From a virus: a stretch of 64,000 nt of DNA. Location: the UHGV virus genome UHGV-1376660, one strand, 5' to 3'. The notes below the pieces were generated by a model that saw only the letters and a list, made by a program, of their open reading frames with translations, was not told where the DNA came from and did not search any database. This document shows positions 59,441-63,550 of the stretch, in pieces (the first letter of the stretch is position 1; every line of letters begins with the position of its first letter). The position numbers and the translations under genes were made by a program.

Positions 59441-59478
59441 GGGGTCTGACGCTCAGTGGAACGAAAACTCACGTTAAG
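59441..59478 (+). repeat. Tn3-family 38 bp terminal inverted repeat (exact Tn3/Tn2-type sequence GGGGTCTGACGCTCAGTGGAACGAAAACTCACGTTAAG)
   Basis: Read directly from the sequence; matches the canonical Tn3 IR from memory. Confidence 0.8.
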
Positions 59479-59480
59479 CA

Positions 59481-59702
59481 ATGTTTTCTTCCTCTGACGC
59501 CTCTTTTAATGGCCGCAAGAGTTCAATAAACCGGAAACAGGTATTATTTCTACGGCAGAAAGGCTTAGGGGCCTTAGAAATATCCCGGCAGCTTAATATT
59601 TCCCGCTCAACTGTCTATAAAAAAATAGAAAATGAGAAGATGATATTTATTAGGATCATCTTTTGTAAATTACTTCCCTCTTCAGATATACCATTTAATT
59701 AA
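59481..59702 (+). pseudogene. tnpR: remnant of a Tn3-family resolvase (C-terminal HTH only)
   Basis: GRKSSINRKQVLFLRQKGLGALEISRQLNISRSTVYKKI aligns with the C-terminus of Tn3 TnpR. The frame opens inside the IR, so it is a fragment. Confidence 0.65.
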
Positions 59703-60069
59703 TTTTTTGTTAATGCAATAATTAATTATAAGTTAATCATGGTTGGCATTAATATATTTTAAGCATGTAACTATTTGGATGTTTTATAGTTAACGCTTTT
59801 GGGTATTCCTCTCTAAAATTGGTAAAAGCTACGGATGCACGTTGGATAATTGATAAAAAATTCATAATTAAGCATGGATAGTTAATTAATTTGTGCTGGT
59901 TTGTTATTTATTGATATATTGATTTCAAAATACGACCATTCATTTAAACTCATATAAAAATTCAAAATTAACAAGAGGTTACCTCTTAGCCAAGAGTAAC
60001 CATTTGTTTCATTTCAACTGGCATGATAAAATCCAGAAACATTTATAATTTACAGGATATTAACTTTAG

Positions 60070-63000
60070 ATGAATAATGCACCGAAATTAATGATACCAT
60101 TTTTTCTTTTGAGCTACTCAGTGGAATCGGCTCCGTTATATTTTAACTCGACAGAAGTCGTTGAGGTAGGCACTTGGGACTGGAATAACAAAGGATATAT
60201 CATAGGCGGAGGGGATGGTAATTATGGTAACCTTACTTTAAAAGGTTCATCTGGCTACAATCACGCATTCAATGTTGGCGTTGATGGCGGGAATGGTATT
60301 TTAACCTTATCTGAATCAACAAAAAACCTGAACAAAAATACTTATTTTTCGACAGGAACTGTATCTGCTGGTAATAATTCAGTGAGTAATACAACAGGAA
60401 TTATTAACATAGTAGGTCAGGGCACTGGACCTATAACTACACTTGACCTTAGTGTAGGGAGCAGTGGCCTCATGGACTGGAATACACAACGCAATAGTCA
60501 TGTGGATGGCACGCTAAATATTATAGAGGGTGCAGTTTTAAATGTTGGTGAGCCTGAGATTTTCTCAAACAACAGAGCTTATGTAGGCTTTGGAAACACC
60601 AGTAATACGGGGGTTATTAATGTTTCTGGTGAGGGGAGTGAACTTAATTTAATAAATAACGCTCCTTATCTAGGAGACTCCGCAGAAAATGGCTCTTTAT
60701 ACATAGGGTTTATTGGTTCAGGTACTGTTAATATTACCGACGGCGGCAAGTTGTCGGCAGGAAGAATAAGTGCTTCAACAACTCTTGTTCAGGATGATTC
60801 AGTTTCTGCACTAAAGCCACCTTCAGCTGAAATCAATGTTTCAGGCGAGAACAGCCAGCTCATTGTCCGAAGCCAGATGTCTCTTGCGGCAGATGCCCTT
60901 GATACCCTCCAGGCGATTGACGTAAAATATACTCAAAAAGGTGCTGGCTCAGCTGTTCTTAATGTAGATAACTATGCCGATGTAATATTTGAAGGCAAGG
61001 CTAACACCGATCAGGATGGTTTCGAAAATCCCGTCTCAGGCCTTTTCATGGCCAGTAGTGCAGGAACGTCTGCAATTGTTAATCTTAATAAAAATGGTTT
61101 TATCACAATCGCAAACAGTATTTTATCGCCTGAAGAGGACGCTATCGTTGCAGGGGATGGAAAATATGCATTTAATTTGAATGGCGGCACTCTGCGTGTT
61201 AATGATTGTAAATATTGCGATAACCGCTTATCCACCAAAGTTAATATGAACGTTCTCTCTGAATCCGTTCTTGAAGCCGATGACGCGAAAGAAATGTATC
61301 TTAACGGTTCATTATCTGGTAAAGGCGGGATAGTTAAGTCAGGCGAAGGTTTGGTGGCGTTATCCGGGGTGAATAGCTATTCGGGTGGAACCCGGGTTGA
61401 AGGTGGGGAACTGCGTTCAGAAAGTAAAGATGCATTCGTTAATAATACCCCCTACACCGTAAACGCAGGAAAGCTCAATCTCAATAATCATAATTTAGTT
61501 ATGTCATCGCTTTCTGGCAAAGGAGGTATCGTCGATGTAACAGACGCTAGCCTTATTATTGACCAGAATGTCGATAGCCTTTATGCCGGTTCATTTGCAG
61601 GTTCCGGCCAGACTGAAAAAAAAGGAACATCAGTATTATATCTCAGCGGCGACAGCAAAAATTATAACGGAGAATTTTCGGTTGCCGAAGGTGGTGTAGA
61701 CTCATCTAATGCCCTGGGGGGGAATATCTTTGTCCAAAATGAAGGTACTTTATCTGCCGAGGGATCTTTAGGAAATACCACTGTTAAAGAGGGCGGGGTA
61801 TTAAGAGTAGGTAGTTATTATTCTGACAAATTTACGCCATCTCAGCTGGTTATCGATAATAAACTTATGAATGATGGAAGCATTATTCTGGGTAGAGTCG
61901 GGGCTATATCCAAAGAGCAAGTCGGCAACGAACTTATTGTCTCAGGCGATTATGCGGGTAATCACGGACAAATTTATTTCAATACTGTACTGGGTGATGA
62001 TTCCTCTCAAACCGACAGAATGAAAATCGGTGGTGATACCTCCGGGACAACATATGTGCACGTGAGTAACGTTGGTGGAACAGGGGATTATACTACCCAC
62101 GGAATCGAACTTATCAGCGTAGCTGGTCAATCCAATGGCGTTTTCTTACAAAAAGATCGTATTGTTGGAGGCGCCTACGAATATTACTTAAGTCGGGGTA
62201 AAGATACTGACTACAGTAACTGGTATCTTGTAAATACCAAACCAGAGCCTGGACCGGAACCTACACCAGAACCTGGACCGGAACCTACACCAGAACCTGG
62301 ACCGGAACCTACACCAGAACCTGGACCGGAGCCTACACCTAAGCCTGAACCAATAATTCGCCCGGAAGGAACCGAGTATGCAGCAAACCTTCTGGCCGCA
62401 AATACGCTTTTTGTTCACAGGCTACACGATCGCCTGGGCGAAACGCATTATGTTGATGCACTCACTGGTGAAGAGAAAGTAACCAGCATGTGGTTACGAA
62501 ATATCGGTGGCCATACCCGGTTTAAGGACAGTACTGGTCAGTTGAAAACTCAGGCAAATCGATATGTTTTACAGCTGGGTGGGGATGTTGCTCAGTGGAG
62601 CAGCAATGCTAACAATCGCTTTCATATTGGTGTTATGGGTGGATACGCTAACCAAAAAAGCAATACCCGTAGTAGTTATAGCGGTTACCGGGCTGATGGT
62701 AGCGTCAACGGTTATAGTGTCGGCATGTACGGGACATGGCTTCAGGATAACCAGGAAAAAACAGGTGGATATGTTGATACCTGGATGCTTTATAACTGGT
62801 TTAGCAATACGGTGAGCGGCGAAAAACTGGCGTCGGAAGGTTATAAATCCAAAGGGATAACTGCATCTGTTGAAGCCGGTTACACATGGAAGACCGGTGA
62901 GAAAAATACTCGAGAAAGTTATTACGTTCAACCTGTGGCACAACTGACATGGATGGGCGTAAAAGCTGATGACCACCATGAATCTAATGGAACTCGCGTG

Positions 63001-63324
63001 AGTGGTAAAGGAGACGGAAATATTCAGTCCCGTTTAGGTGCAAGAGCCTTCATCAAAGGACACAGCCTCGTGGATGAGGGTAAAAACAGAGTATTCGAAC
63101 CCTTTGTGGAAATTAACTGGCTACATAACACTAAAACTTTTGGTACGCGAATGGATGGTGTCGATGTTAAACTGGCCGGGACCCGAAATATTGGTGAGAT
63201 TAAAACTGGTGTTGAAGGTCAGCTAAATCCAAATCTTAATCTGTGGGGTAATGTTTCCCAGCAGATAGGCGATCAGGGTTACAGCGATACACAAGCTATG
63301 ATAGGAATAAAGTATATTTATTAA
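60070..63324 (+). CDS. AIDA-I/Ag43-type autotransporter adhesin (1084 aa): passenger with GG-rich beta-helix repeats, (PEPTPEPG)n linker, C-terminal beta-barrel translocator
   Basis: Signal peptide, repetitive passenger domain, PEPGPEPTPEPG x4 linker, and an about 300 aa C-terminal autotransporter domain (…RYVLQLGGDVAQW…, alternating-aromatic beta strands). Flanked by AT-rich DNA. Confidence 0.8.
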   Translation: MNNAPKLMIPFFLLSYSVESAPLYFNSTEVVEVGTWDWNNKGYIIGGGDGNYGNLTLKGSSGYNHAFNVGVDGGNGILTLSESTKNLNKNTYFSTGTVSAGNNSVSNTTGIINIVGQGTGPITTLDLSVGSSGLMDWNTQRNSHVDGTLNIIEGAVLNVGEPEIFSNNRAYVGFGNTSNTGVINVSGEGSELNLINNAPYLGDSAENGSLYIGFIGSGTVNITDGGKLSAGRISASTTLVQDDSVSALKPPSAEINVSGENSQLIVRSQMSLAADALDTLQAIDVKYTQKGAGSAVLNVDNYADVIFEGKANTDQDGFENPVSGLFMASSAGTSAIVNLNKNGFITIANSILSPEEDAIVAGDGKYAFNLNGGTLRVNDCKYCDNRLSTKVNMNVLSESVLEADDAKEMYLNGSLSGKGGIVKSGEGLVALSGVNSYSGGTRVEGGELRSESKDAFVNNTPYTVNAGKLNLNNHNLVMSSLSGKGGIVDVTDASLIIDQNVDSLYAGSFAGSGQTEKKGTSVLYLSGDSKNYNGEFSVAEGGVDSSNALGGNIFVQNEGTLSAEGSLGNTTVKEGGVLRVGSYYSDKFTPSQLVIDNKLMNDGSIILGRVGAISKEQVGNELIVSGDYAGNHGQIYFNTVLGDDSSQTDRMKIGGDTSGTTYVHVSNVGGTGDYTTHGIELISVAGQSNGVFLQKDRIVGGAYEYYLSRGKDTDYSNWYLVNTKPEPGPEPTPEPGPEPTPEPGPEPTPEPGPEPTPKPEPIIRPEGTEYAANLLAANTLFVHRLHDRLGETHYVDALTGEEKVTSMWLRNIGGHTRFKDSTGQLKTQANRYVLQLGGDVAQWSSNANNRFHIGVMGGYANQKSNTRSSYSGYRADGSVNGYSVGMYGTWLQDNQEKTGGYVDTWMLYNWFSNTVSGEKLASEGYKSKGITASVEAGYTWKTGEKNTRESYYVQPVAQLTWMGVKADDHHESNGTRVSGKGDGNIQSRLGARAFIKGHSLVDEGKNRVFEPFVEINWLHNTKTFGTRMDGVDVKLAGTRNIGEIKTGVEGQLNPNLNLWGNVSQQIGDQGYSDTQAMIGIKYIY

Positions 63325-63356
63325 TATACACTATTGCTTGATATATATTTTAAATA

Positions 63357-63402
63357 AGATCAGGTGGTTAGTTATTGTATACTTACCTGATCTTATTTTT
63401 TA
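63357..63402 (+). terminator. hairpin AAGATCAGGT-(19 nt loop)-ACCTGATCTT followed by ATTTTTT
   Basis: 10 bp perfect arms immediately after the autotransporter stop. Confidence 0.5.
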
Positions 63403-63512
63403 ATCTCATTCTATCTTAGATGATTATTGTCTAGTTTTCCGAAAATCGGCCAGTAAGGTTGCGATAGGACATCTGTGTCCATTAAAAGAGGCGTCGGAGG
63501 AGGGAATCATTG

Positions 63513-63550
63513 CTTAACGTGATTTTTCGGTCCACTGAGCTTCAGACCCC
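63513..63550 (-). repeat. second Tn3-family 38 bp inverted repeat (35/38 identity to the left copy, opposite orientation)
   Basis: Reverse complement reads GGGGTCTGAAGCTCAGTGGACCGAAAAATCACGTTAAG. Confidence 0.75.

Follow-up and report, generated by a model that had tools for sequence, protein, structure and literature searches.

Among the derivatives of Tn3-family transposons, the Tn3-derived inverted-repeat miniature elements (TIMEs) are non-coding, measure a few hundred bp and consist of inverted repeats (IRs) only, and a flank deletion anchored at the element end is both the expected product and a known signature of Tn3-family intramolecular transposition. Mobile insertion cassettes (MICs) are defined as one or more passenger genes lying between transposon IRs without a transposase, and Tn3-family MICs with pathogenicity genes have been documented in Xanthomonas, where those derived from TnXax1 carry transcription activator-like effector (TALE) and type III secreted effector (T3SE) genes (PMC4337579). 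In the Tn1331-delta::IS26 elements of KPC plasmids, intramolecular "cis" transposition removed 171 bp and 1,259 bp of flanking DNA starting precisely at the transposon end, with loss of the 5-bp target site duplication (TSD) and truncation of a neighbouring gene (PMC5142620). Phage-plasmids of the SSU5/pHCM2 group gain accessory genes via Tn3-like elements inserted in plastic regions, with antibiotic resistance, blaTEM, integrons and blaCTX-M as the reported transposon-borne cargo; adhesin or autotransporter cargo is not mentioned in these two accounts (PMC9600943; bioRxiv 10.1101/2025.09.12.675607). The pHCM2-like elements have been described as usually free of transposons and virulence factors. 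Here, we have analysed the segment 59441-63550 of a 64,000-nucleotide stretch of the virus genome UHGV-1376660 (hereafter the window), in which an autotransporter gene lies between two Tn3-type IRs on a phage-plasmid backbone of this group.

The segment is very probably a non-autonomous deletion derivative of a Tn3-subgroup unit transposon with a type Va (AIDA-I-type) autotransporter as passenger, formed via three rearrangements. Its parent would have been laid out as left IR (IRL), leftward tnpA, res, rightward tnpR, AT-rich leader, autotransporter gene, spacer and right IR. Ordinary steps would then explain the anatomy seen today, namely insertion of a transposon and three deletions: one at a microhomology, one of the spacer, and one of the flank that is anchored at the element end.

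The two Tn3-type IRs reported in the original prediction, one exact and the other an inverted copy with three mismatches, were recovered as the only Tn3-IR matches in the window, against none in 100 shuffles (Table 1). Both are ~38-bp terminal IRs of the GGGG...TAAG type, and the arms extend further than the 38 bp first assigned to them, to 77 nt at 88% identity. The inward-reading resolvase remnant of ~44 codons was also confirmed (Pfam HTH_7, E 2.5e-9; 67% identical to residues 141-179 of the Cedecea Tn3-family TnpR). It does not follow the left IR at once, as had been thought. The next 40 bases belong to the last 14 codons of tnpA, and the resolvase fragment (start at 59511) overlaps this tnpA remnant by 9 bp. 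A large DDE transposase of ~1000 aa is missing, with no TnpA match in the window other than C-terminal remnants of 14 and ~17-22 codons. The resolution module (res plus resolvase) is missing too, since the res region present between tnpA and tnpR in a relative described below (contig L007) is deleted and ~44 TnpR codons are left. No 5-bp TSD was found, as the pentamers at the two ends differ; both the absent transposase and the absent TSD had been anticipated. Such an element should be unable to move by itself and, with both IRs intact, could at most be moved by TnpA supplied in trans from a cognate Tn3-type source. Since res is absent, cointegrates would need host recombination for their resolution.

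Table 1. Coordinates of the element and its immediate flanks (positions in the window)
Feature	Position	Strand	Observations
Left flanking pentamer TTATC	59436..59440		Intergenic, upstream of phoH; differs from the right pentamer ATTCA (63551-63555)
Left terminal IR	59441..59478	+	38/38 to the 38-bp IR of Tn3, 0 mismatches; 0 expected by chance
tnpA 3' remnant	59474..59518	-	Last 14 codons, LRPLKEASEEENIA, plus stop inside the IR; tblastn 14/14 to Cedecea TnpA residues 988-1001; end alignment
Deletion junction	59510..59518	+	TGGCCGCAA, a 9-bp direct repeat, in one copy; window compared with L004 (tnpA end, tnpR) and L007 (tnpR)
tnpR 3' fragment	59511..59645	+	Helix-turn-helix (HTH) domain, ~44 codons; stop codon lost; C-termini compared
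AT-rich leader	59646..60069	+	424 bp, 26% GC; counted from the true tnpR stop position
Autotransporter gene	60070..63324	+	Intact, 1084 aa, type Va; Pfam and structure model
Terminator-like hairpin plus TTTTTT	63352..63404	+	Hairpin 63352-63398, 15-bp stem, U6; -19.3 kcal/mol, z = -4.5
Degenerate tnpA-type 3' remnant, right end	63449..63517	+	Ends in GHLCPLKEASEEGIIA plus stop; 15/22 identical to Cedecea TnpA residues 980-1001
Missing-segment junction	63456..63457		477 bp of L007 (13376-13852) absent here
Right terminal IR	63513..63550	-	35/38 to the Tn3 IR; mismatches at IR positions 10, 21 and 28
Truncated backbone gene	63551..63613	-	Codons 1-21, MAKIFFSLQLWGAKTSIAVMN, of a phage-plasmid gene that is conserved (242 aa); ends precisely at the IR tip

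The left end resembles that of Tn3-subgroup unit transposons of the Tn3/Tn2 type, with an identical 38-bp IR and identical last 14 tnpA codons, and shares with them the parental gene order and the position of the passenger downstream of tnpR. The closest sequenced ends were those of a Cedecea neteri plasmid (NZ_CP023526, L004), Pantoea stewartii pDSJ07 and Erwinia tracheiphila plasmids, and the first 78 bp (59441-59518) are 100% identical to L004 and to Tn3-family elements of Cedecea, Pantoea and Erwinia plasmids. The L004 element is complete (IRL, leftward tnpA, res, rightward tnpR, passenger and IRR, its right IR). When the whole element of the window was compared by megablast with PLSDB, 5,426 Escherichia coli genomes and the INPHARED phages, only its 38-78-bp ends matched, and the cargo was absent at the DNA level.

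The relatives that do carry the cargo were reached through the protein. A large protein collection contains an autotransporter (P0001) with 95% identity, encoded by two metagenomic IncFII-RepA plasmid contigs (L007 and L008). Their order is leftward tnpA, a 161-bp intergenic region, a full-length rightward tnpR, the same AT-rich leader, the autotransporter gene and the right IR. With regard to the parental transposon sought in the original prediction, these contigs carry the parental order with the same leader and right end. The window is collinear with L007 (59510-63456 with 9419-13375, 92% nucleotide identity; 63457-63553 with 13853-13949, 95%), so that the match to this tnpA-res-tnpR-passenger arrangement runs from the tnpR codons to the right IR at 92-95%, and the right end is shared at 95% with L007, L008 and a third contig (L009). 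The tnpA/tnpR module of the adhesin-carrying relative is at most 84-86% identical to anything in PLSDB. The tnpA of L007 (6274-8838), the sole one found in an adhesin-carrying relative, is decayed, with two frameshifts, an end at residue 854 and no IRL. An open reading frame (ORF) running outward from inside the L007 right IR (13906-14250) resembles by eye an internal piece of another Tn3-family transposase. Based on this ORF, the L007 element may have inserted into a second transposon.

A single deletion can convert this layout into the left side of the window element. The 9-bp direct repeat TGGCCGCAA occurs once in the tnpA 3' end and once in tnpR in parental-type sequences, and as a single copy in the window. 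The window reads ...CTCTTTTAA TGGCCGCAA GAGTTCAATAAACCGG..., the Cedecea tnpA end reads ...CTCTTTTAA TGGCCGCAA ATGTCC..., and the L007 tnpR reads ...CGCTT TGGCCGCAA GCGATCAATAAATCGG...; the Cedecea tnpR also contains TTTGGCCGCAA. With the repeat at both parental positions, the junction is explicable by one deletion, and it bears the sequence signature of a microhomology-mediated (slippage-type) event. This comparison shows that ~3.5 kb was deleted between the two copies, from the last tnpA codons to tnpR codons ~140-143. The event took tnpA, res and tnpR codons 1-~140 (three quarters of the gene), and left the IR, 14 tnpA codons and an inward tnpR tail, whose lost stop codon is consistent with decay. 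Because tnpA reads towards IRL and tnpR away from it, one deletion from the tnpA 3' end into tnpR yields exactly the arrangement observed. The inward-facing resolvase fragment had been considered inconsistent with simple decay; given the Tn3 order in L004 and L007/L008 and the repeat at both parental positions, a single internal deletion suffices. An exact search with the junction 30-mer in metagenome and viral collections gave no match, a weak negative, as the source contig itself is absent from the metagenome collection. As the tnpR stop codon is lost, a chimeric ORF of 73 aa (59481-59702, + strand) starts antisense to the tnpA remnant, passes through the resolvase HTH and reads on. The putative HTH-only peptide could in principle still bind res-type DNA.

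The leader was indeed AT-rich (26% GC), as predicted, and its length was found to be 424 bp instead of ~370 bp once counted from the true tnpR stop position. It is native to the parental transposon, being collinear with L007, and from 59717 on it is also common to a copy of the module outside any transposon (L013, see below). The GC contents of the autotransporter gene (43%) and the leader (26%) against that of the backbone (51%) indicate a foreign composition. A second low-GC stretch (41% vs. ~51% in the backbone) occupies positions 1-2000 of the window.

In both the window element and L007, the right end resembles the tnpA-proximal end over 93-100 nt, with 17-23 tnpA codons still recognisable, while the genuine IRR on the cargo side of L004 matches over 38-39 nt only. 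By sequence, both ends of the element are of the tnpA-proximal type, unlike the plain 38-bp IRR of Tn3-subgroup unit transposons. Since the right end is of this type, the adhesin was probably captured originally via a surrogate end: with the remnant IR at the tnpA end of a second, inverted element serving as its right end, a transposon would have acquired the adhesin module. Three further observations are consistent with such a capture. First, an Enterobacter isolate contig (L013) carries the adhesin module alone, matching window 59717-63426 at 95.8% nucleotide identity, with no IR and with different DNA downstream. Second, the distant adhesin relatives (66-80% identical; Citrobacter rodentium, Enterobacter ku-bf2 and others) lie in unrelated chromosomal or plasmid loci, and no Tn3 ends were found around them. 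Third, a 477-bp segment (L007 13376-13852, also present in L008 and L009) separates the adhesin module from the right end and is absent from the window. A 307-bp part of it matches Pantoea stewartii pDSJ07 (L005 17446-17752) at 85% identity, a hint of the plasmid background in which the adhesin was captured. We considered whether the extra 477 bp were more of tnpA and rejected this, as just 23 tnpA codons are present and the rest is Pantoea-plasmid-like. Sequence comparison shows that this spacer was lost from beside the right end of the window element. A degenerate search of metagenome contigs for the right-end IR variant, with a pattern matching window 63508-63550, returned only the L007 contig, and is a weak negative given that the source contig was not returned.

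We have then compared the backbone with its relatives. Of a 19.4-kb query, 64% aligned to Salmonella phage SSU5 at 96.5% identity; a 4.4-kb query aligned in full (100%), at ~94% identity, to IncFIB non-mobilisable plasmids of ~108-110 kb from Enterobacter, Citrobacter and Klebsiella. Synteny with the SSU5/pHCM2 group, pHCM2 included, was found as well. The autotransporter gene is absent from these backbone relatives. The proposed import of a foreign gene for a surface protein into the backbone of a phage-plasmid was supported. The window belongs to a JGI metagenome contig of 109,722 bp, and no other contig on record encodes this exact autotransporter. Beside the element, the backbone phoH gene (58584-59418, - strand) has a 1-bp insertion in an A-run near 58815-58820 relative to its relatives (749/775 identical, one gap). 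The resulting frameshift splits the gene into ORFs of 236 and 80 aa, and reflects either a true pseudogene or a homopolymer sequencing error.

The two flanks of the element are not adjacent in these relatives. On C. freundii plasmid P3 (L002), 1,353 bp separate the end of the left flank (7440) from the start of the right flank (8794), and on pHCM2 three genes fill an interval of ~2.2 kb. The comparison with relatives that lack the insertion, as suggested earlier, thus gave a split outcome: such relatives exist and have no IR-like repeat at either site, and an empty site with the two flanks joined was found in none of 525 PLSDB relatives (0/525 with flanks within ~800 bp). That no relative has adjacent flanks argues for a deletion of flanking backbone. 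The comparison shows a backbone deletion of at least 1.35 kb, one edge of which coincides exactly with the tip of the right IR. The tip adjoins codon 21 of the conserved 242-aa gene (MAKIFFSLQLWGAKTSIAVMN followed by the IR), which is truncated after 21 codons. Most likely, it would have arisen through intramolecular "cis" replicative transposition while TnpA was available (>=1.35 kb, or ~2.2 kb relative to pHCM2). Recombination between two insertions would be less parsimonious. The missing TSD follows, as the deletion removed one TSD copy; the absence that had been taken to signal a rearranged or IR-only element is accounted for in this way. As in Tn1331-delta::IS26, flanking DNA was lost right up to the transposon end, together with the TSD, and a neighbouring gene was cut. 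The difference is that the stepwise intermediates were all observed there, and the end product alone is seen here. The region between phoH and the truncated gene varies in content among relatives (L001 7441-8900, L002 7441-8793, L025 2473-4634), with two or three hypothetical genes and with L001 differing from L002; hence, the insertion site is a plastic one within the phage-plasmid.

Of the competing explanations, the least improbable one, which is also the closest to the original prediction, differs from ours in timing and not in the kind of element. A transposase-less cassette would have been made elsewhere and moved into the phage-plasmid by a Tn3-type TnpA acting in trans, with the flank deletion occurring later or in the same event. 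Both IR tips are intact, trans sources are plentiful (at least 5000 PLSDB plasmids have Tn3-type elements that share the 72-78-bp end) and the Xanthomonas MICs provide a precedent (PMC4337579). The element also fits the MIC definition, as its passenger lies between IRs without a transposase, and it resembles the TnXax1-derived MICs in having a pathogenicity-type passenger within Tn3-family IRs longer than 38 bp and in being potentially trans-mobilisable. Movement as a cassette found no support: a TSD is absent, and no second copy of the deletion junction was seen in the metagenome and viral collections, with the weakness already noted for the metagenome search. This order of events would need the same parent and the same microhomology deletion, and its sequence outcome is indistinguishable from that of the reverse order. 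The window element differs from the TnXax1-derived MICs by retaining tnpA and tnpR scars, which show it to be a recent deletion derivative. Overall, we regard prior assembly as a cassette as unlikely.

A composite of two transposons is more improbable still. A Cedecea-type element at the phoH-proximal site and an adhesin element ~1.4-2.2 kb away would have recombined, at the 9-bp repeat or elsewhere, with deletion of the backbone between them and of the transposition genes. Differing pentamers and missing backbone are equally expected from such an event, and the contrast between the left 78 bp (100% to the Cedecea/Pantoea/Erwinia elements), the interior (92% to L007) and the right arm (88% to the left arm) would be compatible with two sources. 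However, the IR plus tnpA end is the most conserved part of the Tn3 subgroup, 97% identical even to Tn3 itself, which makes the 100% identity over 78 bp of little weight; no remnant of the cargo side of a second element was found; and two insertions plus a recombination would be needed, against one insertion and two deletions of common types. An assembly chimera between the phage-plasmid and an unrelated transposon-bearing replicon is hardly credible: the contig is metagenomic, the sole one with this exact protein, and the element lies ~570 bp from its end, but backbone is present on both sides with both junctions exactly at the IR tips, the relatives have no IR-like repeat at either backbone site to mislead an assembler, and the total of 109.7 kb is typical of the family.

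The passenger of the deletion derivative was then examined. The 1084-aa autotransporter of the original prediction was borne out by Pfam (Autotransporter PF03797, E 7.5e-41; AC_1, E 7e-23; PATR). Its transport unit resembles that of AIDA-I (4MEE, E 3e-86, 42% identical) and its autochaperone resembles IcsA in sequence. An AlphaFold (AF2) model with 14 family members predicted a low-confidence, hydrophobic N-terminal stretch of ~21 residues, an all-beta passenger (residues 23-721) with a predicted local distance difference test (pLDDT) value mostly above 80, a disordered Pro-rich (PEPGPEPT)n linker, a plug helix (770-788) and barrel strands (828-1083). This architecture is that of a type Va autotransporter, with a C-terminal 12-strand-type barrel and plug helix, a beta-helical passenger, an autochaperone and a signal peptide, the last one recognised by eye only (MNNAPKLMIPFFLLSYSVES/AP). 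The fold search retrieved AIDA-I and IcsA (autochaperone template modelling score 0.81), and, with weak beta-helix similarity at 12-14% identity, Ag43 and Hap. Based on the model, the cargo is predicted to be an intact, selectively maintained outer-membrane protein, Sec-dependent and self-translocating, whose passenger is a beta-helix. All copies of the gene are intact, and the ratio of nonsynonymous to synonymous substitution rates (dN/dS, 0.06-0.27) indicates purifying selection.

In its AIDA-I-type transport unit, IcsA-like autochaperone and beta-helix passenger with a PATR repeat, the protein is like AIDA-I, EhaA, MisL, IcsA and Ag43. It differs from them in lacking the AIDA 19-residue repeats and in falling far below every named-adhesin cutoff. 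Passenger residues 1-580 had no sequence match to a solved structure, and the Pfam AIDA and Pertactin models gave no match. EhaA is the named protein closest to it (44% identity over the C-terminal 69%). Orthology with SAAT/AIDA-I/Ag43 was considered and rejected, because the NCBIfam cutoffs were missed and the AIDA repeats are absent. The family consists of 66-97% identical relatives in Enterobacter, Citrobacter rodentium, Intestinirhabdus and Mixta, which bear generic autotransporter names only in the sources consulted; the literature was not searched for a characterised member. In 76-80% identical relatives (L010 8314-9626; L026/L027 6349-7631), a divergent pair with Trans_reg_C and YqeJ_C domains (YqeI/YqeJ-like) lies upstream of the autotransporter. 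The pair is absent from the transposon-borne copies, and may represent the native regulators of the autotransporter.

A tandem 12/24-nt repeat (62241-62348) encodes the (PEPGPEPT)n linker between passenger and plug helix, and its composition differs among the window, L007 and L013 copies, which suggests that linker length varies through slippage. Downstream, the terminator proposed earlier was supported as a hairpin followed by U6, which a consensus scan had missed on account of its long loop. Of the features that would mark the gene as a moron (an autonomous transcription unit dispensable for the phage), the terminator and the absence from relatives were found, and promoter-like sites did not exceed chance level.

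Several points weigh against the reading of the segment as a deletion derivative with an adhesin as cargo. On the side of the transposon, no intact parent was found, the L007/L008 tnpA being frameshifted, truncated at residue 854 and without IRL, so the left end of the adhesin-carrying lineage would have to be deduced from Cedecea-type elements. The transposase search covered the last 64 kb of the 109.7-kb contig. Two of the right IR mismatches (positions 21 and 28) lie in the inner IR, so that this end is no more than a candidate TnpA substrate. The internal deletion fits the sequence equally well before or after arrival in the phage-plasmid, and the mechanism of the flank deletion would be deduced solely from its endpoint at the IR tip. 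On the side of the cargo, the consensus promoter scan of the leader did not rise above shuffled expectation. No NCBIfam named-adhesin model was reached (score vs. cutoff: MisL 544/1297, AIDA-I 318/1200, YfaL/EhaC 222/1459, ShdA 189/2249), and a role in adhesion, aggregation or biofilm formation would be assigned by analogy.

The original prediction had pointed to a TIME-like element. This label was rejected, as a segment of 4,110 bp with a 3.3-kb gene is neither miniature nor non-coding, and an MIC-like deletion derivative is the better description. Compared with Tn3-subgroup unit transposons, tnpA, res and most of tnpR are deleted here, a TSD is lacking and the passenger is an autotransporter gene in place of a resistance gene. 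We have thus seen a known process and not a new kind of element, a stripped-down Tn3-type transposon remnant. For annotation, the locus calls for caution: an IR pair without transposase or TSD need not be an exotic IR-only element, and two ordinary deletions suffice here.

The practical value of the finding is modest, as it concerns one metagenomic instance of a putative adhesin with no evidence of current mobility. For the biology of these phage-plasmids, it offers a stepwise case in which a Tn3-family transposon would have delivered a surface-protein gene and then decayed to an immobile cassette. With the same backbone family and the same Tn3-like route as the documented antibiotic resistance cargo, an autotransporter takes the place of resistance here, which would add a colonisation-type factor to what transposons bring to SSU5/pHCM2-type elements. 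By analogy with known autotransporters, the phage-plasmid may confer a surface phenotype on its lysogens. A wider scenario is tentative and somewhat doubtful: an SSU5-type phage-plasmid might serve as a viral vehicle for an uncharacterised autotransporter adhesin family, captured via a surrogate end, and might, upon infection or lysogeny, give Enterobacter- or Citrobacter-like hosts an adhesive or biofilm phenotype, with the internal and flanking deletions selected by the capsid packaging limit. If the element is packaged, the phage particle could spread the adhesin among Enterobacteriaceae.

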